Source of the DNA: an uncultured virus (IMG/VR IMGVR_UViG_3300022178_000020) | Lineage: Duplodnaviria > Heunggongvirae > Uroviricota > Caudoviricetes | Reading direction: 5' to 3' (one strand) | Length of the DNA stretch: 64,000 nt | Virus record (IMG/VR): IMGVR_UViG_3300022178_000020 | Shown here: in pieces, positions 8,846-50,848 of the stretch | How the letters are laid out: every line of letters begins with the position of its first letter | Numbering within the stretch: the first letter of the stretch is position 1 | The notes under the pieces: model-generated | Seen by the model: the letters and a program-made list of their open reading frames with translations, nothing else | Told to the model about the DNA's origin: nothing | The model's database searches: none | Made by a program: the position numbers and the translations under genes

Positions 8846-8856
8846 GTATATAAATA

Positions 8857-12409: not shown

Positions 12410-12468
12410 AACAATTAATATAATTAATCTAATTTAGGAAAACAAATTATTATAGGAGAGTCTTAAAT

Positions 12469-14646
12469 TTATAGTTCTACCCAATCGTTGGATGGGTTAA
12501 AGAATACTAGGTTTGTGCCTACTTTATATCCCATTATTCTAACTACATCACCCGCTGCCGTAGGGGCTGTTGTAGTTAATCTTCCTGTAGCTGTTGATAG
12601 ATATACTACATCTCCTACTGACCCTCCAGGATCAGCAAATACATAGACAATGCCACGTATTACCATACCAGTATTAGAGTTGGTTGAGGTTGATACTCCC
12701 ATAAATCCTTTAGAAGTTGATACGGCATCGGCATCTGAGAAAGTCCAAGCAGAACTACCAAGATAATAAACTCCTCCTGCTACAACTGTGTTACTATAAA
12801 AAGTAACTGTTTCAGCATTAAATCCCTTATCGCCTGCAGATGATGCAGGACCCGCTGAGGATGCTATTTCACCTACTTCTAAAACAGATCCATTACCTGA
12901 AATGGTACTTGTAACAGTAATATCTCCGACAACAGACATAGTTGAGCCATTAAATGTAAAATTAGATTCAGCATTTAGAGTACCATTACCTACTGCTGTT
13001 ACTACTCTATTATTAGCATCATTTGCTATTGTAGGAGAAGTACCTGATGTACCTGAAGTACCTGAGGAACCGTCAGCACCGCTAGTTCTAGTTTTTACGT
13101 TACCACTACTATCTACTGTAAGGAATGTAGTTTCACTACCCACAGGAATAGAAGTAAATTGAGCATTTGATGCTGTTATAAATCCTCCAGCTTTAATATT
13201 ATCGGATACTTCTAATTTTTCACTAGGTGAAGTAGTACCTATACCAAAATTACCTGTAGTATTGATATAACTATCCTTTGAGGCATAAGTTCTAAATACT
13301 ATTTTTTCTGTATCATTATCAAAGATACGAAGTTCCCCAGCATTTGTATCAGGAGGTGCTTGTGTATCATTTCCAATTTTAATAATATTTTCATCCGCTT
13401 CATTTTTTATAAAAATTCGAGGATTTTGAAAACCCCCCATTTCTATACTAGAACTAACAGCTATTCCAATATTTTGGCTATCGTTAGCAAAAAGTCCGTG
13501 CCCTATTTCAATAGCTTTTAAATCCCTTTCAGGGAGGTTAGGTCCATCTACTTCCAATACTAAAGACCCATATTGAAATGATGATTGTTCTCCTAATACT
13601 CTAGAATATATAGCTCCGGTACTTCCGGATACTAATAATTTACTTCCACTAAGTGCAGTATCTTCTATAACAAATGCTAATCTACTAGATTCAGCTCCTT
13701 CAGTAACGGAGCCACTAGGTACTGATAATATAAAATCAGGGGCCTCTTTACTAGAACCTTGTCCTGTTTTAAGTTCAAAAGTAGAAGCAGGTTTATCAGT
13801 TCCTATGCCTATTCTCGCATCATCCCCTGATTTGGAAATAAAAAGGACTTCTTTAAGAACTTCATTAGTTTCTCCTACTAAAAATTTTATAGCTCTACTA
13901 GCTGTATCATAATTTATTTGGGCTGAGGCGCTTACAGGTTGTAGGGATCCTGAGATTGAAGCACTAGCGTCTGTATTAAAAAAATATATGTTGGGGACAG
14001 GGGTAAGTAATACTCCACTTCGAGGGTCGGGGGAGGATGAAGTAACACTACTTAAAGTAATTTGACCCCCTCCTATTACAAGATTAGGACCATGGTCATT
14101 CCCTCCTCCTCCGGTAGGTTCATGAGTATCGTCACCATCAGATCCTGAGGGGTAAATTGTAATGTCTTTATTGTAAATTATATAATTATTAGGGTATTCA
14201 CTTTGAGGTAGAACTCCTAATAAGAATATAGGTTTTTCTGTTTCTTGGGGGGTTACAAACGTGTATGCTAAGGATCCTTGTTCTCTAAATCCTGAGGTAG
14301 CATTAATTCCAGTTAAACCGTTGTAATCTAAGGGTTGGTTTGATAAAAAGAGAGAGGTGTTAGTAGTAATAAACCCATTATCCGTTACTCCTTGGAGAGT
14401 ATATTCGACATCTGCTACTCCACTACCGGCATCACTGACGTCACCATTTACAAAATTAAGTGTAGTTGTAGGGTTAACAGTAGCTGTAATAGGGGTAGTT
14501 TTGGTAATTAAAGTTCCTCCTCCTCCAATAGAACTTGTTAAGGCAAAACTACCACTTGAAGCGTCCCATATAACCGCTCTATCTACAGAGGGAAATTCGG
14601 TAGGATCTAGTTCTACTTTTACATTATAATTAGTTTTTGTAGCCAT
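12469..14646 (-). CDS. Tail fibre/spike-like virion protein
   Basis: IGIGTDKP and GNFGIGTTSPSEKLEV fibre repeats, short GSSGTSGTSG segment, C-terminal GDVVYLS...P...GDVVRIMGY domain. Confidence 0.7.
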   Translation of the reverse strand: MATKTNYNVKVELDPTEFPSVDRAVIWDASSGSFALTSSIGGGGTLITKTTPITATVNPTTTLNFVNGDVSDAGSGVADVEYTLQGVTDNGFITTNTSLFLSNQPLDYNGLTGINATSGFREQGSLAYTFVTPQETEKPIFLLGVLPQSEYPNNYIIYNKDITIYPSGSDGDDTHEPTGGGGNDHGPNLVIGGGQITLSSVTSSSPDPRSGVLLTPVPNIYFFNTDASASISGSLQPVSASAQINYDTASRAIKFLVGETNEVLKEVLFISKSGDDARIGIGTDKPASTFELKTGQGSSKEAPDFILSVPSGSVTEGAESSRLAFVIEDTALSGSKLLVSGSTGAIYSRVLGEQSSFQYGSLVLEVDGPNLPERDLKAIEIGHGLFANDSQNIGIAVSSSIEMGGFQNPRIFIKNEADENIIKIGNDTQAPPDTNAGELRIFDNDTEKIVFRTYASKDSYINTTGNFGIGTTSPSEKLEVSDNIKAGGFITASNAQFTSIPVGSETTFLTVDSSGNVKTRTSGADGSSGTSGTSGTSPTIANDANNRVVTAVGNGTLNAESNFTFNGSTMSVVGDITVTSTISGNGSVLEVGEIASSAGPASSAGDKGFNAETVTFYSNTVVAGGVYYLGSSAWTFSDADAVSTSKGFMGVSTSTNSNTGMVIRGIVYVFADPGGSVGDVVYLSTATGRLTTTAPTAAGDVVRIMGYKVGTNLVFFNPSNDWVEL

Positions 14647-16112: not shown

Positions 16113-19100
16113 TTACAAATCGTTAAAAATTCTAAATGTTAATGAATGCTTGTAGAATAAGCTATAATCAAGAGTATTGTATACTTTAAATCTTAGAATG
16201 TTGTTTGTAACATCAACATCCTCTGCTTGAATGTATATTTGTTCCAAGTTTAGTCTGGATTTAGTGTATTCAGGAACTAAGTATGGGATCGTAAGGTTTA
16301 ACACTACATCATCGGTGGATGTTGTTCCTCCTATATCGGCCCCATCAATTGTGATTGCTGTAGTTGTTGAATATCCACTTCCCCCATCTGTTACTATTAT
16401 TGAAGTAGCAAGTCCTGTATTTCCTATTACAACTGTGGCTTGTGCTCCTGTTCCTCCTCCTGTAATACCAACAGGACCATAGGACCCTTGGGTCTTATTT
16501 CCGGGGTCTGTGGCTACTATACTTATTAATTGGGTTTGAGCAATTTCAGTAGTTACACTTTGTGAAACGAATGTTCCATCTACTTCAGTAATAGTAAAAT
16601 CATATAGATAGTTTTTACTTAAAAATGCCCAAAGGGTACCTGTAAATTTCAATGTAGCACCTGCTCTGATGAAGGGGTCAGCAACGGTTCCTGTTCCGCT
16701 ATTATTTCCTTTTAATATAACCATTCCATCAAATTCAACTACATCGAATGTGCCAAAGCTAAGCCCCGTATTAAAAATATCAGTTCCTGGGTTACCCACG
16801 GATCCTGCAGGTACACTATCTAATATAGACCAATTTTCTGTGATTGATGTACCTGAAGTACCTGATGAGCCTGATGTGCCTGATGAACCACTAGTACCTG
16901 AAGAACCTGATGTGCCTGAAGAACCAGATGTACCCGAAGCTCCCGTCATACCTGAAGAGCCTGAAGTACCTGAAGAACCTGAAGTGCCTGAGGAACCACT
17001 AATACCTGAAGTACCTGAAGAGCCTGAGGTACCTGATGAGCCACTAGTACCTGAAGAACCTGAAGTACCTGATGAACCTGATGTGCCTGAAGCACCTGTC
17101 ATACCTGAGGAGCCAGAAGTGCCTGAAGAGCCTGAGGTGCCTGAGGAACCACTTGTACCTGATGAACCACTTATACCCGAAGTACCTGATGAACCACTTG
17201 TACCCGAAGAACCATCTATACCTGAAGTGCCTGATGAACCTGAAGTACCCGATGAACCATCTATACCTGAGGTACCCGATGAACCACTTGTACCTGAAGA
17301 ACCGTCTATACCTGAAGTACCTGATGAACCACTTGTGCCTGAAGAACCATCTATACCTGATGTACCTGATGAACCTGAAGTACCTGAAGAACCGTCTATA
17401 CCTGAAGTACCTGATGAACCACTTGTACCTGAAGAACCGTCTATGCCTGAAGTACCTGAAGAACCTGAAGTACCCGATGAACCGTCTGTGCCTGATGAAC
17501 CTGATGAACCTGAAGTACCGTCTATACCTGAAGTACCTGATGAACCACTTGTACCTGAAGAACCATCTATACCTGAAGTGCCTGAAGAACCTGAAGTACC
17601 TGAAGAACCATCTATACCTGATGTACCTGATGAACCACTTGTACCTGAAGAACCATCTATACCTGAAGTACCTGATGAACCACTTGTACCTGATGAACCA
17701 TCTATACCTGAGGTACCTGATGAGCCACTTGTACCTGATGAACCGTCTATACCTGATGTACCTGATGAACCTGAGGTACCCGATGAACCGTCTATACCTG
17801 ATGTACCTGATGAACCTGAAGTACCTGAAGAACCACTTGTTCCTGAGGTGCCGCTAGAACCTGAAGAGCCACTAGTACCCGAAGAGCCTGAAGTACCTGA
17901 GGCGCCTGTCATACCTGATGAACCGGATGTGCCTGAAGAGCCGTCTATACCTGCAATCCCTGAAGTACCCGATGAACCACTGGTGCCTGATAAACCACTT
18001 GTTCCTGAAGAACCTGAAGTGCCTGATGAGCCTGATGTACCTGAGGAACCACTAGTACCTGAAGAACCTGAAGTACCTGAAGCCCCTGTCATACCTGAAG
18101 AACCCGAAGTACCTGAAGAGCCTGAAGAGCCTGAAGTACCTGAAGAACCTGAGGTGCCCGATGAACCATCTATACCTGAAGTACCTGAAGTGCCTGAAGA
18201 ACCTGATGTACCTGAAGAACCTGATGCTCCTGGGGCTCCTGCTAGGTTTATACACCATGTATAAGAGGTAATTGAAGACCAAGACCCTGTGGAAGAAGTA
18301 ACATTAATTTCAATATTTCCAGTTCCTGAGTTATAATTGTTTACGGTACCCTCAATAAAATTAGAGGAATCAATTGCTAATATTATGTTCTGCCCCGCAG
18401 TATAAGCTAATCCGGATCCTATAGCAATAGTAAGAGGGGATGAAGGAGGGTTTGAAATTGTAAGGTTATTAACACATGCAGCATAGATATCTCCATCGGT
18501 TCCTGAAGCACCTGATGAGCCTGAGGTACCTGATGAGCCTGATGTGCCTGAAGAACCACTAGTACCTGAAGAGCCATCTATACCTGAAGTGCCTGAGGAG
18601 CCTGAGGTACCCGATGAGCCGGATGTGCCTGAAGCACCTGTCATACCTGATGAACCTGAAGTGCCTGAAGAACCTGAAGTGCCTGATGAACCCGAAGTGC
18701 CTGAAGTGCCTGAAGTACCTGATGAACCGTCTATACCTGAAGTGCCTGAAGAACCTGAAGTACCTGAGGCACCTGTCATACCTGAAGAACCTGAAGTGCC
18801 TGAAGTGCCCGATGTGCCAGAGGAACCCGATGTGCCTGATGAACCTGAAGTACCTGATGAACCTGAAGTACCTGAAATACCCGATGAACCTGAGGAACCA
18901 CTAGTACCTGAAGAACCACTAGTGCCTGAAGAACCTGAAGTACCCGAAGCTCCGGTCATACCTGAAGAGCCTGAGGTGCCTGATGAACCTGAAGTGCCTG
19001 AAGAACCATCAATACCTGAGGTGCCAGAAGAACCACCGGTACCTGAAGAACCTGAAGTACCTGAAGAACCACTAGTACCCGAAGAACCGCTAGTACCTGA

Positions 19101-22100
19101 TGAACCATTAATACCTGAAGTACCCGAAGAACCACTGGTGCCTGAAGAACCTGATGTACCTGATGAACCTGAAGTACCTGAAGCACCTGCCATACCCGAG
19201 GAACCTGAGGTACCTGAAGAGCCACTTCCACCTGTAGCTCCTGAGGTACCTGAAGAGCCACTAGTGCCTGAAGAACCACTAGTACCTGAAGAACCTGATG
19301 AACCTGCAGTACCTGATGTACCTGAAGAACCTGATGTTCCTGAGGCTCCTGTCATACCTGATGAACCCGAAGTGCCTGAAGAACCACTAGTACCTGAAGA
19401 GCCTGAGGTGCCTGATGAGCCACTTTCACCTGTTGCTCCTGATGAACCTGATGTACCCGATGAACCTGAAGTACCTGAAGAGCCGTCTATACCTGAAGTA
19501 CCTGATGAACCACTTGTACCTGAAGAACCATCTATACCTGAAGTACCTGAAGAACCACTAGTACCTGAGGAACCTGAAGTACCTGAGGAACCTGAAGTAC
19601 CTGAAGCTCCTGTCATACCTGAAGAGCCTGAGGTACCTGAGGAACCTGATAAACCTGATGTACCTGATGTACCTGAAGAACCACTGGTGCCTGAAGAACC
19701 ACTAGTACCTGATGAACCCGAAGTGCCTGAAGAACCTGATGTACCTGAAGAACCTGATGTTCCTGAGGCTCCTGTCATACCTGAAGAACCTGATGTGCCT
19801 GAAGAACCACTTATGCCTGAAGTACCTGATGAACCTGCAGCACCTGAAGTACCCGAAGAACCATCTATACCTGATGTTCCTGAAGAGCCTGAGGTACCTG
19901 AGGAACCTGATACACCTGATGTACCTGATGTACCTGAAGAACCACTAGTACCTGAGGAGCCACTGGTGCCTGAAGAACCTGATGTACCTGAAGAACCTGA
20001 TGTGCCTGAAGCTCCAGTCATACCTGAAGAACCTGATGTACCTGATGAACCCGATATACCTGATGTACCTGATGTACCTGAAGAACCAGATATACCTGAA
20101 GAGCCTGATGTACCTGAAGAACCTGAGGTACCTGATGAACCATTTATACCTGAAGTACCGGATGAACCACTAGTACCTGAAGAGCCTGATGTACCTGAAG
20201 AACCTGAGGTGCCCGATGAACCATCTATACCTGAAGTGCCTGATGAGCCTGATGTACCAGAGGTTCCTGATGAACCCGATGCCCCTGGGGCTCCTGCTAA
20301 GTTTAAACACCATTCTATAGTACCTGAGAATGTCCCCGTGTAAGTTAAATTAATTAATACTATTACCCCTGAATTGGGAGTATAACTATCTACTGTTCCT
20401 TCAATAAATTGGGTAGCACTATGTGCTAATATTACATTCTGTCCTGCGGTATAAGCTAAATCAGTAGCAAAAGTTAAAGTAAGTGATGGTGGAGGGGTAC
20501 CACTAGTAATAGTTTGATTTGCACAATCCGCGTATACATCACCATCCGCTCCAGCAGCTCCTGAAGAACCTGAAGTGCCTGAAGTGCCTGAAGAACCATC
20601 TATACCTGAAGTGCCTGATGAGCCTGATGTGCCTGATGAACCACTAGTACCTGAAGAACCTGATGTACCTGAAGCTCCAGTCATACCTGAAGAACCTGAT
20701 GTACCTGATGAACCCGATATACCTGAAGTACCTGATGAACCTGCAGTACCTGATGTACCTGAAGAACCTGAAGTGCCTGAGGCTCCTGTCATACCTGATG
20801 AACCCGAAGTGCCTGAAGAACCACTAATACCTGAAGAACCCGAAGTACCTGATGTACCTGATGAACCTGATGTACCCGATGAACCTGAGGTGCCTGAAGA
20901 GCCGTCTATACCTGAAGTACCTGATGAACCACTTGTACCTGAAGAACCATCTATACCTGAAGTACCTGAAGAACCACTAGTACCTGAGGAACCTGAAGTG
21001 CCTGAAGAACCTGATGTGCCTGAGGCACCTGTCATACCTGAGGAACCTGAGGTACCTGAAGAGCCACTTTCACCTGTAGCTCCTGATGTGCCTGAAGAAC
21101 CACTAATGCCTGAAGAGCCACTGGTGCCTGAAGAACCTGAAGTACCTGAAGAACCTGAAGTACCTGAAGCACCTGTTATACCCGAGGAACCTGAAGTTCC
21201 TGAAGAGCCACTTTCACCTGTAGCTCCTGAGGTGCCTGATGAACCTGACGTACCTGATGAACCTGATGTGCCTGATGAGCCATCCTCACCTGTAGCCCCT
21301 GAAGTACCTGACGAACCTGATGTACCTGAAGAACCACTAGTGCCTGAAGAACCATCTATACCTGAAGTGCCTGAGGAGCCTGAAGTACCCGATGAGCCTG
21401 ATGTGCCTGAAGAACCACTATCCCCTGTAGCTCCTGATGTACCCGAGGAACCACTAGTACCCGAAGAACCAGAAGTACCTGAGGCTCCAGTCATACCTGA
21501 TGAACCACTAGTACCTGATGAACCGCTAACACCTGAAGAGCCTGAAGTGCCTGAAGTGCCTGAAGAACCTGAAGTACCTGATGAACCGCTAAAACCTGAG
21601 GAGCCACTAGTACCTGAAGTACCTGATGAACCACTAGTACCTGATGAACCACTAGTACCTGATGAGCCTGAAGTACCCGATGAACCTGATGTACCAGAGG
21701 TACCTGATGAACCACTAATACCTGATGAGCCTGAAGTACCCGATGAACCTGATGTACCTGAAGAACCACTAGTACCTGAAGAACCTGATGTACCCGAAGT
21801 ACCTGAGGAGCCTGAAATACCCGATGAGCCTGATGTACCTGAAGTTCCCGATGAGCCCGAAATACCTGAGGAGCCTGATGTACCCGAAGCACCTGTCATA
21901 CCTGATGAACCGGAGGTGCCTGAAGAGCCACTAATACCTGATGAACCACTGGTGCCTGCAGAACCACTAGTACCTGATGAACCTGAAGTACCCGATGTAC
22001 CCGATGAACCTGATGTACCAGAGGTACCTGATGAACCACTAATGCCTGATGAGCCTGAAGTACCTGATGAACCTGAGGAACCACTAGTACCTGAGGAACC

Positions 22101-25100
22101 TGATGAGCCTGAAATGCCTGAACTACCTGAAGTTCCTGAAGAACCTGAAACACCTGAGGTGCCTGAAGAACCTGAGCTGCCTGAAGTACCTGATGAACCT
22201 GATGTGCCTGAGGCCCCTGTCATACCTGATGAACCACTAGTACCTGAAGAGCCTGATGTACCCGAAGTACCTGAGGAGCCACTAATACCTATGGCGCCTG
22301 AGGTGCCTGAGGTGCCTGATGAACCTGATGAACCTGAGGTGCCTGAGGAACCACTAATACCTGATGTGCCTGAAGAACCTGAAGTACCTGAGGCACCTGT
22401 CATACCTGAAGAACCTGATGTGCCTGAAGAACCACTTATGCCTGAAGTACCTGATGAACCTGCAGCACCTGAAGTGCCTGATGAACCTGAGATACCTGAT
22501 GTTCCTGAAGAACCTGAGATACCCGATGTACCCGAAGAACCTGATGCTCCGGGGGCTCCCGCTAGGTTTATACACCATTGTTGAGAACCACTAAAAGTCC
22601 CTGTAGAAGAGGTAACTATAATACTAATGCCCCCTGTTCCCGAATTATAGGACCCAACCGTTCCTTCAATTAGGTTATTAACATTACCTGGGGTAGCCAA
22701 TATTATACTTTGTCCCGTTGTATAAGCTAATCCAATTCCTATAACAAGATTAAGGGTACCCGAAGCGGGGGAAGTGAGGGATTGGGTACTACAATTGGCG
22801 TATATGTCACCATCCTCACCTGATGAACCCGAAGTACCCGAAGAACCACTAGTACCTGAAGAACCTGATGTACCTGAAGAACCTGATGTTCCTGAGGCAC
22901 CTGTCATACCTGAAGAACCTGATGTGCCTGAGGAACCTGAAGTACCTGATGAGCCAGCTGTACCTGAGGTACCAGATGAGCCTGATGTGCCTGAAGAGCC
23001 ACTAGTACCTGAAGAACCACTAGTGCCGGAAGAACCACTAGTACCTGAAGAGCCACTAGTACCTGAAGAGCCACTAGTACCTGAGGAACCCGAGATACCA
23101 CTAGTGCCTGAGGAACCACTAGTACCTGATGTACCTGAGGAACCACTAATACCCGATGTACCTGAAGAACCTGAAGTGCCAGATGAACCCGAAGTGCCTG
23201 AAGTTCCTGAAGAGCCATTTATCCCAGAGGTGCCGGAAGAACCTGAGGTACCCGAAGATCCTGAAGTGCCAGATGAACCATCGATACCCGAAGTACCTGA
23301 TGAACCTGATGTGCCCGAAGCCCCCGTCATTCCTGAGGAACCTGAGGTGCCTGATGATCCTGAAGAGCCGGCGGTGCCTGAGGTACCTGAAGAACCACTA
23401 GTACCTGAAGAACCTGAGGTACCTGAAGAACCATCTATACCTGAGGTACCTGATGATCCTGAAGAGCCGGAGGTGCCTGAGGTTCCTGAAGAACCACTAG
23501 TACCTGAAGAACCTGAGGCACCTGAAGAGCCTGATGTACCAGAGGTACCTGATGAACCACTAATGCCTGATGAGCCTGAAGTACCTGATGAACCTGATGT
23601 ACCTGAAGAACCACTAGTGCCTGAAGAACCACTAGTACCTGCAGAACCGCTAGTACCTGAAGAGCCTGAAGTACCTGAAGTACCCGAAGAACCGTCTATA
23701 CCTGAGGTACCCGACGATCCTGATGAACCTGAGGTGCCTGAAGAACCTGATGTGCCTGAAGAACCACTAGTACCTGCCGAACCGCTAGTACCTGAAGAGC
23801 CTGAAGTACCTGATGCACCCGTCATACCCGAAGAACCTGAAGTACCTGATGAACCTGCAGTACCTGAAGAGCCATCTATGCCTGAAGTGCCCGATGAACC
23901 TGAAGTGCCTGATGAACCACTAATACCTGATGAACCACTAGTACCTGAAGTGCCTGATGAACCACTAGTACCTGATGTGCCTGATGAGCCACTAGTACCT
24001 GAAGAGCCACTGATGCCTGATGATCCCGATGTGCCTGAGCTACCTGAGGTGCCTGAGGAGCCTGAAAAACCTGAAGTGCCTGATGAGCCGGATGTACCTG
24101 ATGTACCTGATGAGCCTGAAGAACCACTAGTACCTGAAGAACCTGAGGTACCTGAAGAGCCATCTATACCTGAAGTACCCGAAGAACCACTAGTACCTGA
24201 GGAACCATCTATACCTGAGGTGCCTGAGGAACCTGAGGAACCTGAGGTACCTGACGAACCTGATGAGCCTGATGAACCCGAGGTACCTGAGGCACCTGTC
24301 ATACCTGAAGAACCTGAAGTACCTGATGAGCCTGATTCTCCAGATGTACCTGAAGTACCTGATGAACCTGATATTCCAGATGAACCTGAAGTACCTGATG
24401 AACCTGATGTGCCTGAAGAACCTGAAGAACCTGAAGTGCCTGAGGAACCGTCTATGCCTGAGGTACCTGAAGAACCTGAAGAACCTGAAGTACCAGATGA
24501 ACCTGAAGTACCCGATGAACCCGATATACCTGAAGTGCCCGATGAGCCTGAGGTGCCAGATGAGCCTGAGGAGCCAGATGTGCCCGAACTACCTGAAGTA
24601 CCTGAAGAACCGGATGTACCTGAAGCACCTGTCATACCTGATGAACCGCTAGTACCCGATGAACCCGATGATCCTGAAGTGCCTGAAGTGCCTGATGATC
24701 CTGCTGCTCCTGGAGCTCCCTCTAGGTTTATACACCATTGTAGAGAAGTAGGGGTAGGCCAATTCCCTGTTTGGGAAGTAATATCGATTTCTATATCCCC
24801 ATTTGATGAGTTATATGAATTAACTATTCCTACTATATACTGTGTGGCACTATATGCTAGTATTACAGTTTGACCTACTGTATATGCTAGTCCTGCGGCT
24901 ATGTTTATATTAAGGGGGTCTCCAGGGGGATCGGTAATGGTTTGAGTGCTACAATCGGCATATATGTCACCATCTTCACCAGATGAACCCGAAGTGCCTG
25001 AAGTACCTGAAGTACCTGAGGAGCCTTCGGCACCCGATGATCCTGATGTACCTGATGAGCCGCTTCCTCCTCCTCCTGTTCCGTCATTATAATCTAATAC

Positions 25101-25463
25101 AATACAAACTTCTTCCTCAGCATTTAATGGAAAATTACCAGATTGAGCACTAGCTCCTGCAGTTATTGTAAAAGATATATAATTAGTATTATCCGTTACA
25201 GCTGTGTAAGGAAAAACTGCGTAGTTAGCAGGATATTTTTTACTGTGTATTGTTAAATTACCTTTAGTACTATCTTTTAGGTAATCCGATATGTTAATAT
25301 TATTAAGGTCCGATATGTTAATATCAACACGAGTTGTATTTCTAACATCTAAACTACTATAAAGACTTAATCTACCAGGGGAGGGGATTGTAGAGGGAGT
25401 TGAAACCTTGTAAGGTATACAAAATGCTCCTAAATCTCTATCTATAATAAATTTTTGTGCCAT
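16113..25463 (-). CDS. Giant collagen-like (Gly-X-Y, X/Y mostly Ser/Thr) fibre protein, 3116 aa, with four repeated globular knob domains
   Basis: Gly at every third residue through long GSS/GTS/GID/GMT/GAS runs; non-repetitive N- and C-termini; ATATTTATA motif upstream at 25482-25490. Confidence 0.85.
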   Translation of the reverse strand: MAQKFIIDRDLGAFCIPYKVSTPSTIPSPGRLSLYSSLDVRNTTRVDINISDLNNINISDYLKDSTKGNLTIHSKKYPANYAVFPYTAVTDNTNYISFTITAGASAQSGNFPLNAEEEVCIVLDYNDGTGGGGSGSSGTSGSSGAEGSSGTSGTSGTSGSSGEDGDIYADCSTQTITDPPGDPLNINIAAGLAYTVGQTVILAYSATQYIVGIVNSYNSSNGDIEIDITSQTGNWPTPTSLQWCINLEGAPGAAGSSGTSGTSGSSGSSGTSGSSGMTGASGTSGSSGTSGSSGTSGSSGSSGTSGSSGTSGISGSSGTSGSSGTSGSSGSSGTSGIDGSSGTSGSSGSSGTSGSSGTSGSSGISGSSGTSGTSGESGSSGTSGSSGMTGASGTSGSSGSSGSSGTSGSSGSSGTSGIDGSSGTSGSSGTSGIDGSSGTSGSSGTSGSSGSSGTSGTSGSSGTSGFSGSSGTSGSSGTSGSSGISGSSGTSGSSGTSGTSGSSGTSGTSGSSGISGSSGTSGSSGTSGIDGSSGTAGSSGTSGSSGMTGASGTSGSSGTSGSAGTSGSSGTSGSSGTSGSSGSSGTSGIDGSSGTSGTSGSSGTSGSAGTSGSSGTSGSSGTSGSSGTSGSSGISGSSGTSGTSGSSGASGSSGTSGSSGTSGTSGSSGSSGTSGIDGSSGTSGSSGTSGSSGTSGTAGSSGSSGTSGSSGMTGASGTSGSSGTSGIDGSSGTSGSSGTSGSSGTSGINGSSGTSGTSGSSGTSGSSGTSGISGSSGTSGTSGSSGTSGISGSSGTSGSSGTSGSSGTSGSSGTSGSSGTSGSSGTSGSSGTSGTAGSSGTSGSSGTSGSSGMTGASGTSGSSGTSGSSGTSGSSGTSGSSGEDGDIYANCSTQSLTSPASGTLNLVIGIGLAYTTGQSIILATPGNVNNLIEGTVGSYNSGTGGISIIVTSSTGTFSGSQQWCINLAGAPGASGSSGTSGISGSSGTSGISGSSGTSGAAGSSGTSGISGSSGTSGSSGMTGASGTSGSSGTSGISGSSGTSGSSGSSGTSGTSGAIGISGSSGTSGTSGSSGTSGSSGMTGASGTSGSSGTSGSSGSSGTSGVSGSSGTSGSSGISGSSGSSGTSGSSGSSGTSGSSGISGSSGTSGTSGSSGTSGTSGSSGTSGSAGTSGSSGISGSSGTSGSSGMTGASGTSGSSGISGSSGTSGTSGSSGISGSSGTSGTSGSSGTSGSSGTSGSSGTSGSSGISGSSGTSGTSGSSGTSGSSGTSGSSGTSGSSGTSGTSGSSGFSGSSGTSGSSGTSGTSGSSGVSGSSGTSGSSGMTGASGTSGSSGTSGSSGTSGATGDSGSSGTSGSSGTSGSSGTSGIDGSSGTSGSSGTSGSSGTSGATGEDGSSGTSGSSGTSGSSGTSGATGESGSSGTSGSSGITGASGTSGSSGTSGSSGTSGSSGISGSSGTSGATGESGSSGTSGSSGMTGASGTSGSSGTSGSSGTSGSSGTSGIDGSSGTSGSSGTSGIDGSSGTSGSSGTSGSSGTSGTSGSSGISGSSGTSGSSGMTGASGTSGSSGTSGTAGSSGTSGISGSSGTSGSSGMTGASGTSGSSGTSGSSGTSGSSGTSGIDGSSGTSGTSGSSGAAGADGDVYADCANQTITSGTPPPSLTLTFATDLAYTAGQNVILAHSATQFIEGTVDSYTPNSGVIVLINLTYTGTFSGTIEWCLNLAGAPGASGSSGTSGTSGSSGTSGIDGSSGTSGSSGTSGSSGTSGSSGTSGINGSSGTSGSSGTSGSSGISGSSGTSGTSGISGSSGTSGSSGMTGASGTSGSSGTSGSSGTSGSSGTSGSSGTSGTSGVSGSSGTSGSSGTSGIDGSSGTSGAAGSSGTSGISGSSGTSGSSGMTGASGTSGSSGTSGSSGTSGSSGTSGSSGTSGSSGTSGTSGLSGSSGTSGSSGMTGASGTSGSSGTSGSSGTSGSSGTSGIDGSSGTSGSSGTSGIDGSSGTSGSSGTSGSSGATGESGSSGTSGSSGTSGSSGTSGSSGMTGASGTSGSSGTSGTAGSSGSSGTSGSSGTSGSSGTSGATGGSGSSGTSGSSGMAGASGTSGSSGTSGSSGTSGSSGTSGINGSSGTSGSSGTSGSSGTSGSSGTGGSSGTSGIDGSSGTSGSSGTSGSSGMTGASGTSGSSGTSGSSGTSGSSGSSGISGTSGSSGTSGSSGTSGSSGTSGTSGTSGSSGMTGASGTSGSSGTSGIDGSSGTSGTSGTSGSSGTSGSSGTSGSSGMTGASGTSGSSGTSGSSGTSGIDGSSGTSGSSGTSGSSGTSGSSGASGTDGDIYAACVNNLTISNPPSSPLTIAIGSGLAYTAGQNIILAIDSSNFIEGTVNNYNSGTGNIEINVTSSTGSWSSITSYTWCINLAGAPGASGSSGTSGSSGTSGTSGIDGSSGTSGSSGTSGSSGSSGTSGSSGMTGASGTSGSSGTSGSSGTSGSSGTSGSSGTSGLSGTSGSSGTSGIAGIDGSSGTSGSSGMTGASGTSGSSGTSGSSGSSGTSGTSGSSGTSGSSGTSGIDGSSGTSGSSGTSGIDGSSGTSGSSGTSGIDGSSGTSGSSGTSGIDGSSGTSGSSGTSGIDGSSGTSGSSGTSGIDGSSGTSGSSGTSGIDGTSGSSGSSGTDGSSGTSGSSGTSGIDGSSGTSGSSGTSGIDGSSGTSGSSGTSGIDGSSGTSGSSGTSGIDGSSGTSGSSGTSGIDGSSGTSGSSGTSGIDGSSGTSGSSGTSGISGSSGTSGSSGTSGSSGTSGSSGMTGASGTSGSSGTSGSSGTSGSSGTSGSSGTSGISGSSGTSGSSGTSGSSGMTGASGTSGSSGTSGSSGTSGSSGTSGSSGTSGTSITENWSILDSVPAGSVGNPGTDIFNTGLSFGTFDVVEFDGMVILKGNNSGTGTVADPFIRAGATLKFTGTLWAFLSKNYLYDFTITEVDGTFVSQSVTTEIAQTQLISIVATDPGNKTQGSYGPVGITGGGTGAQATVVIGNTGLATSIIVTDGGSGYSTTTAITIDGADIGGTTSTDDVVLNLTIPYLVPEYTKSRLNLEQIYIQAEDVDVTNNILRFKVYNTLDYSLFYKHSLTFRIFNDL
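16850..25080. repeat. Degenerate 9-bp coding tandem repeat array (cctgaagta / cctgatgaa type) broken by four knob domains
   Basis: Visible directly; synonymous variation between units. Confidence 0.95.
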
Positions 25464-46776: not shown

Positions 46777-47475
46777 TTAGAAAATGGGGTTATCTTCATA
46801 ATAATCACGTAAATCTTCTACAATTTCATTGCGGTGGTTAGATTGGAGTGTAATAGCTTCAAGATTTTTAATTTTTCGTGATGCTTTGTAAAGATATTTA
46901 AATCCAGAGTCTGATTTTTTCTTTAAATCTGTTTGGTGAGCATCACCACATACCATCATTTTGGACCTTAAACCCAGACGTGTTGTAATCATTTCCATTT
47001 GATCGTGGGTTACATTTTGAGCTTCATCTACAATAACACATGCATCTAAAAATGTTCTACCTCTCATAAATGAAACAGGTACAATTTCTATTTTACCATC
47101 TGCTATAAGTTTTTCGATTTTAGCCTTATCATATAACATAAATAAATTTTGATAAATAGGTTGCACCCAGGGGTCCATTTTTTCTCTTAAATCACCTGGG
47201 AGGAAACCGATTTCTTCTTTACTTACTGTAGGACGAGTAATAATGATTTTGGTGTAGATTCTTCTAAGTAAACCATCTAAAGCTACTTGACAAGCTAATA
47301 GGGTTTTACCTGATCCTGCTTGACCCGCTAATAGTGTAATTGTGTTGTCTAGTATTAGTTGTTTTGCTTCTTTCTGTTCATCGTTTAATTGTATTTTAAA
47401 CTTTATAGGGTTTTTTGCTACTTTTTTTTCTCTAAAAATTTCTTTAGCTTCTTCGGTCGTATTGAAATGGGTCAT
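46777..47475 (-). CDS. phoH: PhoH-family ATPase
   Basis: GQAGSGKT, ITRP, GFLPGDLREKMDPW, MRGRTF, DEAQN, GDAHQTD. Confidence 0.95.
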   Translation of the reverse strand: MTHFNTTEEAKEIFREKKVAKNPIKFKIQLNDEQKEAKQLILDNTITLLAGQAGSGKTLLACQVALDGLLRRIYTKIIITRPTVSKEEIGFLPGDLREKMDPWVQPIYQNLFMLYDKAKIEKLIADGKIEIVPVSFMRGRTFLDACVIVDEAQNVTHDQMEMITTRLGLRSKMMVCGDAHQTDLKKKSDSGFKYLYKASRKIKNLEAITLQSNHRNEIVEDLRDYYEDNPIF

Positions 47476-48193
47476 TATTAAAGTTAATTTTAACTAGTTT
47501 ATCTAATCCGGCGTTTACATGCATTTCATTCTCTAAAACAAGGTCAAAGTTAAATCTATCATCCAGTGGTAAAACTAGGTCAACTTGTGAGCCCCATCTT
47601 ATAAGTGAAAAACGTTCATTTTGTGATACAGGTGAATTCTGGTCATTAATGAAGGGAGCTATAACATTTACGTCCTCGTCTGCTATTTGGACTAAGTAAT
47701 AAGTATAATCTAATTGTGGAGAGTAAATTTTATTCCACATTCTTTCATTATACTTAAGATATTCTAAATTATTAGGGTTAATAGCAGCATTTAAAATATC
47801 TTTTTCTATAGCTAACATAGGTTTGTTAGTAGATTCTATAGGATCTAAACCTTTATATTGTAATATACCAGGGTAGGGTATTCTATTTATATGAACATCA
47901 TAAAATGACATAAATATGCCAATTACAAGAGAAGGTTTATCGTAAGTTTTATCCCCAAGTACATCTTGAATTGTATAATTCATACCCTTAATTTCTACTA
48001 TAGGGTCAGTAGCGTTTTGAACTACCTTTTGATATAAAATTGTTCCGTCGGCTGGGGAGTAAAAGTGTCTGTGGTCTACATAGTTAGGGCGCATTGGGTC
48101 TCTAAAAAAGAAAGTATTTGATAATTCACCTACTTCCAATTTTGATAATTCTGCAACCTCCCCCTCTAACCAGTCTTCTAAATATTGAGCCAT
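47444..48193 (-). CDS. Phosphatidylserine decarboxylase-family pyruvoyl enzyme (short type, no membrane anchor)
   Basis: FFFRDPMR, SPADG, IFMSFYDVHINRIP, autocleavage-site-like IRWGSQVDL. Confidence 0.85.
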   Translation of the reverse strand: MAQYLEDWLEGEVAELSKLEVGELSNTFFFRDPMRPNYVDHRHFYSPADGTILYQKVVQNATDPIVEIKGMNYTIQDVLGDKTYDKPSLVIGIFMSFYDVHINRIPYPGILQYKGLDPIESTNKPMLAIEKDILNAAINPNNLEYLKYNERMWNKIYSPQLDYTYYLVQIADEDVNVIAPFINDQNSPVSQNERFSLIRWGSQVDLVLPLDDRFNFDLVLENEMHVNAGLDKLVKINFNNDPFQYDRRS

Positions 48194-49119
48194 TATAGGA
48201 GGGATTTATCGTAATCTACATAATTCAAATGCATTATCATACAGCTTAACATAGCTCCTGACTTCATGTATTCTGAGATATTGAAAAATACTGGTTCGAG
48301 TCCTTCGTTAAAGCAGATTTTTTCTAAGCTTTCAATTTTATGTTTTTCTGCTTCATAATTTTCATCTGCTCTAGTCATTTCAGAAATATTTGAAGCACAT
48401 AAAATTGTGTTGCCCAAACGTACTGAATTTGCCATTCCGTTAAGGGCGTCGTCACCTTCTATGTTTATTACGTCAGTATATTGTGATAATTCAGCTAATT
48501 CAACATCATCATATAGTTCCGTGCAAACCAATGTTTTTTCTTTAGTTAACGGGAAAATAGAACAATCTAAGTGGTATAGATATTCATCAACCATCTCAAG
48601 TTTAATGATTTTCATACCAAATTCTTTTTCCATCCATTCATAGGCTTGAATATCTGAGCGCATTCCATAACCCCCTACATAAACATTGTCATAGAGATAT
48701 TTTAAATCTGCTTCACCTTCCCATTTAAAGGGACACATATGAACTTTATAACCCATGGATTCAAAAAATGGTTTTCCAACTTCTTCTTCCCCTTGTCGAG
48801 GTTCAGAAGTAAAGTTTGCCATAATAATATTATTTGAATCTTTAATATGAGGTAAATAAATACCTAAATTTGCTACATATACCAAATCTTGGAAATCTCC
48901 ATCAGCGGGTAGTACATAAGCTAAGCTATTGCCTGCTACAAATTGATATAAATCTAAAAATTGACGATAAGCAGTTCCTTTATTTATTTTAAGTGCTTCT
49001 TCTTCCATTTCTTGCATCCAAATATTATTGGGGTTTGCAGTAGATAATGTGAAGGGAAAATTCATAACGAATGCCGGTATAGGCAGTTGTGAGGGGGTCT
49101 CTTTCATTTTATATAACAT
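48193..49119 (-). CDS. Amidinotransferase-superfamily enzyme (DDAH / arginine dihydrolase-like)
   Basis: DLVYVAN, RQGE, WEGEAD, YHLDC, SEYMKSGAMLSCM (catalytic Cys). Confidence 0.85.
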   Translation of the reverse strand: MLYKMKETPSQLPIPAFVMNFPFTLSTANPNNIWMQEMEEEALKINKGTAYRQFLDLYQFVAGNSLAYVLPADGDFQDLVYVANLGIYLPHIKDSNNIIMANFTSEPRQGEEEVGKPFFESMGYKVHMCPFKWEGEADLKYLYDNVYVGGYGMRSDIQAYEWMEKEFGMKIIKLEMVDEYLYHLDCSIFPLTKEKTLVCTELYDDVELAELSQYTDVINIEGDDALNGMANSVRLGNTILCASNISEMTRADENYEAEKHKIESLEKICFNEGLEPVFFNISEYMKSGAMLSCMIMHLNYVDYDKSLL

Positions 49120-49159
49120 TTTTAATTACGTGTATACATATAGTATACTACTAGAGAAT

Positions 49160-49186
49160 AAAAAAGCCCCGCATAAGCGGGGCTTT
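49160..49186 (-). terminator. Intrinsic terminator after the major capsid gene
   Basis: AAAGCCCCGC-TTAT-GCGGGGCTTT then TTT on the minus strand. Confidence 0.9.
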
Positions 49187-49210: not shown

Positions 49211-50848
49211 TTAGAGGGTATTCAAACCGTTCACATAGATCTTAGCATAGTATTCAGGTCTTAACATCTTCTTAGCATAGCGAGTCAAGAGGCCTTTACG
49301 TGGAGTGAAGGTCTGTGGATCGTATACAAGAGGAGTCATGATCAATGGAATATAAGGAGCAAAAGTAGCACCTGTTTCCAAGAACTGAGAACCTCTAAAT
49401 CCTAATAGGATAGTGTTTTCAGTCATATATGGGTTCTTATAAACATCAAACTTGGTGTTTAAGTTACCTACTTTTTGGATACCAAACGCGTAGTTCATAG
49501 TATCAGCATCCGCTCCATCTGTAGCAGCAAATCCTGGGATTGATTCCAAGATAGTACCGATTGTTGGAGAACATACCATAAAGTTAGCGCCTCCTCTCAA
49601 AGTTAACTGGTGGATCTTGTTAGATACCTTGTTTAACTTAGTACCTAGAGTTTGGAACCATTGGCCTTGAGTATTATAGAAAGTACCATTGTTGGTTTCA
49701 CCATTAGCATCAAATGTTTCATTGTTCCTAGCTGACCAGTAGTCAGTAGTAAGAGCATTTTCAATTAACATACCTAGGATCTCCAAATCAATTTCAAGAG
49801 CAATGTACTCACTCATGATGCTTGTCAATTCAGCTTCAGCATCCAAAGAATGGTAAGCGTTCAAATCTTGAGCAAATTCTGGAGTCCATACAGCCTTAAG
49901 TTTCTTAGTCTTAGCAACGATTGCTTCAGACTTCATCTTAATGTTGATTTCTGGGATATCGATCGGGTTGTTATTTCCGTTCAAAGTGGTGTTACCATCT
50001 TCGAAATCACCTCTTCGGTTATCCTGTGGTGCCTGTACATAAGTGATAGTAAAGGCAGTTGGGTCAGTGGCACCCGCGGTACCTTGAACGTATAAAACAA
50101 TATCATTAGCACTTCCTGAGGCATAATTGTATTGAGGAATATTAACTCCAACACTAGTACCGTCTACAACGAATCCTCTAACACCATCAAGGTCTGGGAA
50201 GGCGAATGATGATGAGTTGAATACTAGTCTCTTTAAGGTACTAGCAGTTCCTGCAATAGAAGCAGATAACGCTGAGTCGAATCCAACTTCGGCCCATGAG
50301 GCTGAGCTGATACTCGCAGCGGTTGCAATTGGGCCTGATGAAGTTACATTGGTAGAGTAAGTCCACTTACCTGCACCGTATAAACCATCAGTAGGGGCAC
50401 CCTCAGTGTTAGTAACACCATACATAGAGCCTGCACCAAATACATCACCACCTACATTGAATTTAGAACCAGACTTAGCTGTTCCATATTGAAAATCGAG
50501 GAAGAAAACAAGTCCTGAAGGTAAGCTCATAGGTTGAACACTTACGAAATCTTTCGCAGCAATCATACCGAATACTTTTCTTACCAAAGGAAGAGCAACT
50601 CCTGCCCATTGTTCACCTGTTCCAGGAGTAAATGAAGCACCTGCTACACCACCACCAGTTTGTGAAGATTCAACAACAAGCTGTTTAGCTTGGTTTTCGA
50701 GAATCAAAGCCATATTGTTTTTGTCAGTCTCACTATTGAGTCCTTCTAACAATCCTGTCTGATTCCATTTGTTAGCTAATCTAGCGGAGTCCGATTGGAC
50801 GTTTTTCCACTGATTTGCGCTCTCTAAAAGAGAATTTAAATTTGACAT
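49211..50848 (-). CDS. Major capsid protein (T4 gp23-like)
   Basis: LILENQ, LPLVRKVF, VQPMSLPSGLVF, KKLKAVWTPEFAQDL, APYIPL, TRYA. Confidence 0.95.
   Translation of the reverse strand: MSNLNSLLESANQWKNVQSDSARLANKWNQTGLLEGLNSETDKNNMALILENQAKQLVVESSQTGGGVAGASFTPGTGEQWAGVALPLVRKVFGMIAAKDFVSVQPMSLPSGLVFFLDFQYGTAKSGSKFNVGGDVFGAGSMYGVTNTEGAPTDGLYGAGKWTYSTNVTSSGPIATAASISSASWAEVGFDSALSASIAGTASTLKRLVFNSSSFAFPDLDGVRGFVVDGTSVGVNIPQYNYASGSANDIVLYVQGTAGATDPTAFTITYVQAPQDNRRGDFEDGNTTLNGNNNPIDIPEINIKMKSEAIVAKTKKLKAVWTPEFAQDLNAYHSLDAEAELTSIMSEYIALEIDLEILGMLIENALTTDYWSARNNETFDANGETNNGTFYNTQGQWFQTLGTKLNKVSNKIHQLTLRGGANFMVCSPTIGTILESIPGFAATDGADADTMNYAFGIQKVGNLNTKFDVYKNPYMTENTILLGFRGSQFLETGATFAPYIPLIMTPLVYDPQTFTPRKGLLTRYAKKMLRPEYYAKIYVNGLNTL

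Follow-up and report, generated by a model that had tools for sequence, protein, structure and literature searches.

A conserved gene pair of phages and bacteria encoding an ArgZ/AgrE-like enzyme and a soluble protein of the phosphatidylserine decarboxylase fold, with a possible role in arginine-to-diamine conversion

Closest known enzymes and layout of the phage locus

Polyamines serve to neutralise the DNA packaged by phages and also to support translation. Putrescine is known to be made through PLP-dependent enzymes, the pyruvoyl ADC of the archaeal type or decarboxylases derived from AdoMetDC, in combination with an agmatinase or deiminase step. Arginine dihydrolases convert L-arginine to L-ornithine, CO2 and two NH3, and those closest to the locus described here are ArgZ (Synechocystis Sll1336) and AgrE (Anabaena Alr4995), compared here through their N-terminal domain (PDB 6JUY-6JV1 and 6LRF-6LRH). 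Among decarboxylases, the closest systems are E. coli Psd (6L06/7CNW) and the short phosphatidylserine decarboxylases (PSDs) of the PRK05305/TIGR00164 type, together with two fungal enzymes, Ao-ADC1 of Aspergillus oryzae (arginine; 9JF5) and PsiD of Psilocybe (tryptophan; 8X4Q), that use the PSD fold and a pyruvoyl group on a soluble amino acid. We know of no partner enzyme for either Ao-ADC1 or PsiD.

Phages are known to encode enzymes of di- and polyamine metabolism, some of them repurposed pyruvoyl enzymes (PMC9992855; PMC10407285), though the folds of the virus polyamine enzymes (PMC9992855) and of the AdoMetDC-derived pyruvoyl ornithine/arginine decarboxylases (PMC10407285) differ from those of the pair. 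The terms phosphatidylserine, dihydrolase and amidinotransferase are not mentioned in PMC9992855, PMC10407285 or PMC13625781, and our literature search found no paper treating both genes together. The PE-biosynthesis part of a survey of ocean AMGs (PMC11360552) counts viral psd as a lipid gene.

The window, a stretch of DNA of 64,000 nucleotides, comes from an uncultured, T4-like, marine phage in which the enzyme gene pair lies directly behind the capsid gene and amid late structural genes. The features of the locus are as follows.

46777..47475, minus strand: PhoH-like ATPase, 232 aa (PF02562, E 3.8e-62); the ORF shares 32 nt with the 3' end of the PSD-like gene
47444..48193, minus strand: predicted soluble PSD-fold pyruvoyl-type decarboxylase, 249 aa (PF02666, 86.9 bits; phrog_12670, E 1e-43), with predicted self-cleavage between G201 and S202
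48193..49119, minus strand: ArgZ/AgrE-like guanidino-group-modifying enzyme (GME), 308-aa ORF (phrog_12759, E 1.6e-61; match to AgrE 6lrf)
49133..49141, minus strand: ATATGTATA, a weak look-alike of the recurrent motif ATATTTATAA and candidate late promoter; site ATATGTATAC
49160..49183, minus strand: intrinsic terminator after the capsid gene, a GCCCCGC-TTAT-GCGGGGC hairpin (7-bp G+C stem, TTAT loop) followed by a T-run
49211..50848, minus strand: major capsid protein gene of the gp23 type (PF07068 Gp23, E 3.4e-72; phrog_138 major head protein), upstream context outside the cassette

A preliminary description of this DNA had proposed that the two enzyme genes are coupled by a TAATG overlap, and the sequence confirms it: the GME and PSD-like genes have base 48193 in common, within ...CCTATAATGGCT..., as a TAATG stop/start. 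Their placement behind a capsid terminator likewise held, as the hairpin at 49160-49183 folds at -26.1 kcal/mol (z -6.39) and was equalled by none of 200 shuffles, although it is absent from the output of a simple consensus scanner. The variant of a late motif that had been proposed upstream of the pair fared less well. The window's recurrent upstream motif, ATATTTATAA, occurs in nine exact copies, all on the minus strand and mostly in gaps immediately 5' of genes; ATATGTATA is indeed present at 49133-49141, but the site before the GME gene, ATATGTATAC, departs from the motif at two of 10 bases and falls outside the 46 matches with at most one mismatch, so that ATATGTATA is possibly a late promoter and a weak candidate. 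As for riboswitches or other RNA clues, Rfam gave nothing in the window and just two tRNAs in eight bacterial loci.

Sequence and fold of the two enzymes

Relatives of the GME are 304 aa long and start with MKETPSQ, which makes the second ATG, at 49107, the probable true start. In sequence searches its best PDB match was AgrE 6lrf (E 5e-18; 1.2e-27 by profile), and its predicted model (pLDDT 92.2) has the same fold as the ArgZ/AgrE N-terminal domain, with ArgZ 6jv0 matched by Foldseek at E 3.6e-22 (TMq 0.79, TMt 0.88, rmsd 2.4 A). The runner-up family was DDAH (E 1.6e-12), and the matches to SxtG, HsvA and AGAT (E 2.5e-11 to 5e-10) were about 11 orders of magnitude weaker than that to ArgZ. 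The GME differs from ArgZ/AgrE, to which it is 22-23% identical, in standing alone without their C-terminal ornithine-cyclodeaminase-like domain, in an extra helix before the catalytic Cys and in having a decarboxylase partner.

Nine residues are invariant in the GME family (32 sequences, 304-aa numbering): D74, N80, R104, E107, E130, R150, H179, D181 and C289. The first eight are the counterparts of AgrE D65, N71, R90, E93, E118, R139, H168 and D170, so that every mappable AgrE residue is kept, and the ninth is the C-terminal Cys, assigned from its location where the fold ends, as the HMMER alignment reaches no further than AgrE residue 234. According to the titles of the PDB entries, the mutated key residues of ArgZ/AgrE are N71 and C264. 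By analogy with DDAH-type enzymes, we take R104 and R150 (AgrE R90 and R139) to hold the alpha-carboxylate of the substrate, and the conservation of both arginines therefore favours an amino-acid substrate. The Cys, His and acidic motifs had been described as intact, and Cys289, His179, D74, E130 and D181 bear this out.

The name amidinotransferase, also used in the preliminary description, has no backing from Pfam, which returned no family for the window protein at E <= 0.01. The protein also falls under the curated NCBIfam cut-offs for arginine dihydrolase (NF052232, 83.1 vs 450 bits; NF052231, 82.3 vs 1025) and for DDAH (NF045659, 82 vs 300 bits). On the side of DDAH, PF19420 is precomputed on many close relatives and reached 30.2 bits in one bacterial homologue, and was not found by the Pfam search on the window protein. 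Sequence, profile and fold nonetheless agree in supporting the ArgZ/AgrE arginine dihydrolases as its nearest relatives.

The PSD-like protein shares with E. coli Psd and the short PSDs the core fold, PF02666 (86.9 bits vs a cut-off of 22, profile positions 6-193 of 198) and the Gly-Ser site. The SPADG, DVH and WGS motifs, reported earlier as kept, were found at residues 46-50, 99-101 and 200-202, and across 63 aligned PSD-like sequences G50 never varies, while P47, H101, G201 and S202 each reach a conservation of 90% or more. Passages of a study of the E. coli enzyme (PMC7952604) give its self-cleavage triad as D90/D142-H144-S254, the counterparts of which are D49/D99-H101-S202. Its predicted model (pLDDT 93.9) has just two short helices ahead of the core, and Foldseek matched it to E. 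coli PSD (E 1.3e-6), PsiD (6.7e-5) and the A. oryzae arginine decarboxylase (9jf5; 2e-3).

Unlike E. coli Psd, to which it aligns with a TM of about 0.5, the PSD-like protein has no membrane-binding N-terminal domain. The acidic N-terminus without an anchor that had been pointed out earlier is evident from the first 30 residues, with seven acidic and one basic, and from a top 19-residue Kyte-Doolittle mean of 0.95, with no hydrophobic segment; some stretch averages 1.6 or higher in eight of the 63 family members. All 15 listed NCBIfam models of PSD or archaetidylserine decarboxylase scored under cut-off, the best PSD model at 71 bits vs 183, and N123, M126, E130, N149, R151, D172 and Q191 are conserved specifically in this family as against PSD. 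A search of the ESM Atlas returned 'PSD family' clusters only, mostly viral. All five pair-bearing bacterial genomes analysed for it encode a separate canonical PSD, scoring 145-197 bits vs 83-92 for that of the pair. These results support the PSD homologue being a soluble paralogue, distinct from the housekeeping lipid enzyme.

Reuse of the PSD fold for free amino acids, cited as a precedent in the preliminary description, is represented among the fold matches by PsiD and the A. oryzae enzyme and is also treated in passages of PMC12904898. By analogy, the phage protein probably works like Ao-ADC1 and PsiD, although these are fungal proteins of 350-480 aa that are 12-13% identical to it and belong to another subfamily. 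The PSD-like domain also occurs fused to Acb1 (anti-CBASS) in P0246 and at the head of proteins of 412-1114 aa, one of which, P0248, also has an ADP-ribosyltransferase domain; such fusions made up five of 12 long matches scanned, taken from the best 150 of 614 matches.

Conservation of the pair in phages and bacteria

The GME gene lies directly 5' of the PSD-like gene, at a constant 3-nt offset, in 78 of 80 related IMG/VR loci, the remaining two of which start at the PSD gene. Across these loci the PSD-like protein is 74-80% identical where the capsid protein is down to 55-60%. Among GenBank phages, the GME is found in 47 records, 45 of which hold both genes (GME/PSD-like counts: Campylobacter, 40/39; Bacteroides, 6/6; Xanthomonas, 1/0), and the carriers of the pair are Campylobacter Fletchervirus and the Bacteroides DAC phages. 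Campylobacter phage NCTC12673 retains both genes at a distance of about 43 kb from each other; here and in Bacteroides phage DAC19 they lie amid replication genes. The main text of a screen of NCTC12673 ORFs (PMC13091555) has no mention of decarboxylase, amidinotransferase, gp44 or gp85.

A scan of genome contigs queried with an alignment of nine PSD-like sequences gave 79 loci from many phyla, and a GME homologue (35-68% identity; 35-55% in bacterial loci) adjoins the PSD-like gene in 75 of them. One of the four loci without it ends 146 nt past the PSD gene. The trees of the PSD and of the GME have matching sub-clades. With joint conservation found by the gene-neighbourhood check that had been proposed, in the viral loci and in the genome scan alike, the two enzyme genes are supported as a conserved functional pair. 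PhoH, which the preliminary description had added to the unit, does not share this distribution. The window protein is a full match to its family (PF02562, 209.9 bits, profile positions 6-205 of 205) and its gene lies downstream of the pair in 79 of the 80 related viral loci, but tblastn found PhoH in none of the 79 loci of the genome scan, and it is adjacent to neither gene in DAC19 or NCTC12673; its link to the pair is confined to the marine phage lineage of the window.

The neighbours of the bacterial pair are mixed and lineage-specific. Exporter homologues were the most frequent (MATE in 43 and an ABC exporter in 16 of the 79 loci), and since an exporter is joined to the cassette, the product in these bacteria is probably exported. 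Homologues of polyamine genes were a PotD-like binding protein (11 loci), agmatine deiminase (seven) and aminopropyltransferase (two), and in Hoeflea the genome's sole Spermine_synth match is inside the cassette, so that the polyamine link proposed earlier finds support in genes beside the pair in some bacteria. No third conserved biosynthetic gene besides the exporters emerged from a crude clustering of ORFs, whose calling is noisy in high-GC bacterial loci, and from Pfam searches on 52 neighbouring ORFs. The pair as sole source of diamine in bacteria was not borne out: PF02784 decarboxylase-family matches numbered 2-6 in four of five pair-bearing genomes and one in the fifth, a count that does not separate ornithine/arginine decarboxylase from the DAP decarboxylase of the lysine pathway, which PF02784 also covers.

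Possible routes from arginine

We infer the substrates, step order, product and gain for the phage as follows. The GME would bind free L-arginine and hydrolyse its guanidino group through the Cys-His-acid site to give ornithine (or citrulline) plus free ammonia and CO2, and the PSD-fold protein would cleave itself between Gly201 and Ser202 to form a pyruvoyl group, with which it would decarboxylate the amino acid from the first step to putrescine. As a separate unit past the capsid terminator, the pair may be expressed together with the late genes and would raise the polycation pool during DNA packaging and late protein synthesis; in the bacterial cassettes with a MATE or ABC exporter, the product would probably leave the cell. 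Five phage genomes, three of them 92-100% complete, each encode one GME and had no spermidine synthase, AdoMetDC or CN-hydrolase, which suggests that in the phage the two steps would suffice. The exact route, from L-arginine through ornithine to putrescine, is put forward tentatively; taken loosely, with citrulline for ornithine or a similar diamine for putrescine, and acting late in infection, it comes close to an even chance. In the broadest sense, an amine derived from arginine would also be the outcome of the decarboxylase-first and amidino-transfer alternatives below.

If true, putrescine would have one more, convergent route, combining an ArgZ-like hydrolase and a PSD-fold decarboxylase, and a widespread misannotation would be corrected, given that the labels 'phosphatidylserine decarboxylase', 'DDAH' and 'amidinotransferase' sit on thousands of marine-virome and bacterial proteins (2379 and 1968 at E <= 1e-5). 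The cassette is small, and among its carriers are systems that can be cultured (Bacteroides DAC phages, Campylobacter Fletchervirus, Hoeflea and Amycolatopsis).

Several observations speak against the arginine-to-putrescine route. Both proteins fall far under the cut-offs of their nearest named families, the in-operon agmatine-deiminase homologue of seven loci suits an agmatine route better, and a housekeeping polyamine route would not usually have an exporter next to it. The PF02784 matches mean that the pair is not the sole possible source of diamine, the fusions to Acb1 and to long tails with an ADP-ribosyltransferase domain point to host conflict and not to metabolism, a single partner occurs in four of 79 genome loci and in one Xanthomonas phage, and neither riboswitches nor other RNA clues turned up. 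A broader reading, which we regard as rather unlikely, is that of a widespread arginine pathway, not previously described, shared by many bacterial phyla and no fewer than three lineages of phage, whose product would be a dedicated exported cation (a guanidino-amine or another arginine-derived diamine) and not plain putrescine, made late by phages as a DNA counter-ion or an anti-defence weapon. Were this the case, the pair would include the first PSD-fold enzyme from a bacterium or virus to take a free amino acid as substrate, and the Acb1 and ADP-ribosyltransferase fusion proteins would share the same conflict role.

The order of the two steps could also be reversed, with the PSD-fold enzyme making agmatine from arginine, as Ao-ADC1 does, and the GME acting as an 'agmatine dihydrolase' that forms N-carbamoylputrescine, or directly putrescine, by hydrolysis of agmatine or of one of its derivatives (aminopropylagmatine, for example). 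Organic cations are typical cargo of MATE pumps, so the exporters fit, as do the in-operon homologues of agmatine deiminase (7/79 loci) and aminopropyltransferase (2/79). A PSD-fold arginine decarboxylase is known (9jf5; passages of PMC12904898), but the match to it is remote (E 2e-3, 13% identity), the CN-hydrolase that would complete a deiminase route was found in none of the five phages, and the GME invariantly keeps the counterparts of AgrE R90 and R139, which presumably hold an alpha-carboxylate that agmatine lacks. We consider this order of steps unlikely.

Somewhat less likely still is amidino transfer, in which the decarboxylase would yield an amine and the GME would place on it the amidino group of L-arginine, the guanidino-amine being exported by bacteria and accumulated by phages. 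The superfamily does include amidinotransferases, with SxtG, HsvA (a polyamine amidinotransferase) and AGAT among the fold matches, the Campylobacter phage gene is annotated as an amidinotransferase in GenBank, adjacent exporters would suit a secreted special metabolite and an in-operon deiminase could recycle the guanidino-amine. The hydrolases ArgZ/AgrE are, however, far ahead of the transferases (E 3.6e-22 vs 2.5e-11), Pfam offers no match at E <= 0.01, the key Asn of ArgZ (N71 in the PDB titles) is invariant in the GME family and no further tailoring genes are conserved near the pair.

Phage-host conflict or the modification of a macromolecule, in place of metabolic supply, would have the pair, for example, deplete arginine, make or destroy a signal, or decarboxylate groups on DNA, protein or envelope that bear serine or another amino acid. 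The fusions in P0246 and in the long proteins including P0248 agree with this, as does the position of the gene amid late structural genes in the window and replication genes in DAC19 and NCTC12673, and the abstract of PMC13091555 reports that deoxyinosine replaces dG in Fletchervirus DNA. Against it, the fusions are few, the GME retains those residues that a free amino acid as substrate would call for, no hydroxymethylase or set of base-modifying kinases or transferases was found in the scanned parts of the window, and the bacterial pair keeps company with small-molecule exporters and polyamine genes and not with genes of DNA modification or defence. DNA hypermodification (serine or an amine on DNA, with a link to deoxyinosine) was set aside because of these bacterial neighbours, and we hold the conflict or modification reading as a whole to be improbable. 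A true PSD, raising the output of phosphatidylethanolamine during infection while the GME serves an unrelated purpose, is very improbable: PF02666 is matched over the Pfam cut-off, JGI and GenBank annotate the protein as PSD and the window protein and most of the family have a Tyr at the counterpart of Tyr137, a phosphate-binding residue in E. coli PSD, but the protein is under every NCBIfam PSD cut-off, it has no hydrophobic or amphipathic membrane domain where the E. coli enzyme requires three N-terminal amphipathic helices and does not take soluble serine compounds as substrates (passages of PMC7952604, also for Tyr137), the five pair-bearing bacteria already have a canonical PSD, and the strict pairing with a guanidino enzyme would be left unexplained.

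Two minor observations concern the fusion proteins. P0248 had no relative in the viral contigs searched, and two ParB-like motifs were spotted in it by eye. The same contigs matched the Acb1 half of P0246 alone, at two loci.

Gene layout and the upstream motif

The window covers part of the genome of a distant T4-like myovirus, with all genes on the minus strand, a G+C content of ~0.35, and genes encoding a gp23-type capsid protein, portal, terminase, head protease, sheath, tube, and baseplate parts, as well as ribonucleotide reductase, a DnaB-like helicase, a UvsX-like recombinase, and SSB. As stated in the preliminary description, the pair under study, encoding a guanidino-modifying enzyme (GME) and a protein resembling phosphatidylserine decarboxylase (PSD-like), is placed behind the terminator of the capsid gene. 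This hairpin, which is not reported by a simple consensus scanner, folds at −26.1 kcal/mol (z −6.39), and 0/200 shuffles fold equally well.

49211-50848, minus strand: capsid gene, directly 5′ of the terminator
49160-49183, minus strand: strong hairpin terminator, directly after the capsid gene
48193-49119, minus strand: GME gene, first of three tightly packed genes after the terminator
47444-48193, minus strand: PSD-like gene, second of the three
46777-47475, minus strand: PhoH gene, third of the three
14650, 25481, 30774, 32939, 34548, 39235, 46768, 55018, and 59215, minus strand: exact copies of ATATTTATAA

The reported coupling of the GME and PSD-like genes by a TAATG stop/start overlap at 48193 is likewise present, and the PhoH open reading frame (ORF) overlaps the final 32 nt of the PSD-like gene. 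The true GME start is probably at 49107, because its relatives are 304 aa long and begin with MKETPSQ.

The recurrent motif ATATTTATAA occurs nine times without mismatch, always on the coding strand and mostly in short gaps just upstream of genes, and allowing ≤1 mismatch there are 46 matches in the window vs 27.5 ± 4.6 expected. It is probably the late promoter of this phage and differs from the T4 late promoter, TATAAATA. The site 5′ of the GME gene, ATATGTATAC, had been taken for a variant of this late motif, but is just a weak look-alike because it differs from ATATTTATAA at two of ten positions; late expression of the pair is instead inferred from its position among head genes.

Elsewhere in the window, a single ORF of 3116 aa (16113-25463, minus strand), with an exact ATATTTATAA just upstream, is made up for the most part of collagen triple-helix repeats (18 stretches matching PF01391) and is probably a giant fibre; G+C is 0.42–0.50 over 16–26 kb (0.48–0.50 in the core, 18–24 kb) vs ~0.35 elsewhere. 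A 767-aa protein near the replication genes (10106-12409, minus strand) has two glycosyltransferase domains, one of them matching ‘GT4 in conflict systems’ (PF20706), and a GIY-YIG-type homing endonuclease (111-785, minus strand) adjoins the ribonucleotide reductase genes.

Residues and folds of the two proteins

No Pfam family matches the GME at E ≤ 0.01; among proteins of solved structure, the arginine dihydrolases AgrE and ArgZ are closest to it (E 5e-18; profile search, 1.2e-27). The structural model (pLDDT 92.2) superimposes on ArgZ (TM 0.79/0.88; rmsd 2.4 Å; E 3.6e-22), with weaker fold matches to DDAH (1.6e-12) and to amidinotransferases (~1e-10 or weaker). Counted along sequence alignments, AgrE residues D65, N71, R90, E93, E118, R139, H168, and D170 correspond to GME D74, N80, R104, E107, E130, R150, H179, and D181, all of which are unchanged across 32 sequences from phages and bacteria, as is C289 at the C-terminal end; N71 and C264 are the mutated key residues named in PDB titles for ArgZ/AgrE. 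The protein had been described as an amidinotransferase with intact Cys/His/acidic motifs, of which the motifs stand, while the name is not backed by Pfam. R104 and R150 are presumed, from DDAH-type structures, to hold the substrate α-carboxylate. By residues and model, the GME appears to be a hydrolase-type pentein that keeps what would be expected for free L-arginine.

The PSD-like protein matches PF02666 with 86.9 bits, while all NCBIfam PSD models fall far under cut-off (best, 71 vs 183). The motifs noted preliminarily are in place (SPADG, 46–50; DVH, 99–101; WGS, 200–202); G50 is shared by all of 63 relatives, and P47, H101, G201, and S202 each by ≥90% of them. In a HMMER alignment, D49, D99, and H101 pair with D90, D142, and H144 of E. 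coli PSD, the maturation of which proceeds via D90/D142-H144-S254 according to excerpts of its description (PMC7952604). The same excerpts assign membrane binding to three N-terminal amphipathic helices and state that soluble serine compounds are not substrates (PMC7952604). In contrast, the PSD-like protein is without a membrane domain: as had been claimed, the N-terminus is acidic and lacks a hydrophobic anchor, with a mean hydropathy of 0.95 in the most hydrophobic 19-residue window and only two short helices preceding the core of the model (pLDDT 93.9). Fold matches include E. coli PSD (E 1.3e-6; TM ~0.5), the tryptophan decarboxylase PsiD (E 6.7e-5), and an Aspergillus oryzae arginine decarboxylase (9JF5; E 2e-3), described in excerpts of PMC12904898 as a PSD-family pyruvoyl enzyme acting on free arginine. 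The PSD-like protein is a putative soluble pyruvoyl decarboxylase with a fold known to accept free amino acids.

Co-occurrence of the two genes in phages and bacteria

Conservation of the pair, on which the preliminary proposal of a polyamine route turned, was recovered by gene-neighbourhood survey in phages and bacteria alike. With the PSD-like protein as query, 80 IMG/VR loci were retrieved, and in 78 the GME gene lies directly upstream of the PSD-like gene at an identical 3-nt offset; the remaining two begin at the PSD gene. The order capsid-GME-PSD-PhoH is kept where capsid identity is just 55–60% and the PSD-like proteins still share 74–80%. GenBank phage records contain the GME in 47 cases and the PSD-like gene in 45 (Campylobacter, 40 vs 39; Bacteroides, 6 vs 6; Xanthomonas, 1 vs 0). 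The pair is adjacent among replication genes in Bacteroides phage DAC19, while in Campylobacter phage NCTC12673 the GME and PSD-like genes are ~43 kb apart (beside helicase/clamp genes and GroES, respectively) and both are kept, so co-retention is independent of linkage. In DAC19 (4895-12869), the neighbouring ORFs, all annotated ‘hypothetical’, were named by eye as DnaB-like helicase, dUTPase-like, primase-like, large endonuclease-like, dCTP-deaminase-like, and IMPDH/GMP-reductase-like.

Among 1.84 billion representatives, 614 matched the PSD-like protein at E ≤ 1e-3, the best being a chromosomal protein of Agarilytica rhodophyticola (53% identity). A genome scan (one genome per species; motif [IV]R[WFY]GSQ...) yielded 255 relatives, and among the best 80, representing 79 distinct loci, a GME homologue adjoins the PSD-like gene in 75 loci (35–68% identity; bacterial loci, 35–55%). 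Of the four others, one stops 146 nt past the PSD-like gene. Three loci (L085, L086, and L155) appear to be phage contigs that ended up in MAG bins. The bacterial loci span Actinomycetota, Verrucomicrobiota, Acidobacteriota, Gemmatimonadota, Campylobacterota, Pseudomonadota, Planctomycetota, and others, and have the order PSD then GME, opposite to that in phages, except for L094 (GME first) and L111 and L119 (GME on the opposite strand).

By the pair, the 79 loci contain MATE homologues (43) and ABC exporter homologues (16), with both in L139 and an exporter not adjoining the pair in L085 and L139. Homologues of agmatine deiminase (7), aminopropyltransferase (2), and a PotD-like binding protein (11, Verrucomicrobiales) also occur, all under equivalog cut-offs, and no further conserved gene was found around the bacterial pair. 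The sole Spermine_synth match of the Hoeflea genome is the cassette copy. Allokutzneria oryzae carries three separate pairs (L097, L101, and L156), its genome having three PSD-like matches and one canonical PSD. The 1.7-Mb genome of the endosymbiont Candidatus Glomeribacter gigasporarum (L161) retains the pair and an ABC exporter, with only one PF02784 match and no spermidine synthase found.

PhoH, a clear PhoH-family ATPase that had been grouped with the pair, lies 3′ of it in 79/80 related viral loci but was not found by tblastn in any of the 79 genome loci and does not adjoin the pair in DAC19 or NCTC12673; it is a neighbour within this lineage, outside the cassette.

In a quick tree of PSD-like proteins, from which rows with matches covering <85% of the query (DAC19 included) were dropped, a single branch (SH-aLRT 92) splits 14 phage rows from 75 bacterial rows. 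The bacterial sub-clades recur in the quick GME tree (79 rows, seven dropped), which also has a clade of marine phages (98); the long DAC19 and L155 branches are placed elsewhere, unreliably.

Candidate reactions of the pair

Together, the GME and PSD-like protein could provide a complete two-step conversion of arginine to a diamine, a reading suggested by the GME residues, the soluble pyruvoyl partner, the exporter and polyamine context, and the lack of another phage polyamine enzyme (spermidine synthase, AdoMetDC, and CN-hydrolase each 0/5 in five phage genomes, three of them 92–100% complete). Because the presumed carboxylate-binding arginines are conserved, the best-fitting route would be arginine to ornithine to putrescine, which, taken a little loosely, is plausible if somewhat short of probable; the exact route is more tentative. 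The exporters beside the pair, which suggest a special secreted product, and the presence of other candidate decarboxylases in pair-bearing bacteria count against this reading.

A literature search found no paper treating the two genes together, and term counts in the main text of three articles gave no mention of phosphatidylserine, dihydrolase, or amidinotransferase (PMC9992855, on virosphere polyamines; PMC10407285; PMC13625781, from 2026). The superfamilies are known, as is this type of phage auxiliary function; their combination is undescribed.

Decarboxylation first, by way of agmatine, is unlikely, even with the deiminase homologues of seven operons fitting it better than the ornithine route. 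Slightly less likely is amidino transfer, for which the fold matches are weaker than those to ArgZ. A conflict or modification role is a still fainter prospect, hinted at by PSD-like domains joined to Acb1 (anti-CBASS; P0246, 390 aa) or heading long proteins (the P0248, P0256, and P0261 group, 412–1114 aa), fusions known from protein records alone, with which inteins in two PSD-like proteins were counted. P0248 has an ADP-ribosyltransferase domain and two motifs that are ParB-like by eye, Lys/Glu-rich linkers occur in P0248 and P0256, and the inteins (P0243 and P0388), with a LAGLIDADG endonuclease, are inserted shortly after SPADG. A true lipid PSD, the sense in which viral psd is handled in excerpts of an ocean AMG survey (PMC11360552), is very improbable; all five pair-bearing genomes tested have a separate, higher-scoring PSD (145–197 bits vs 83–92 bits for the PSD-like paralogues).
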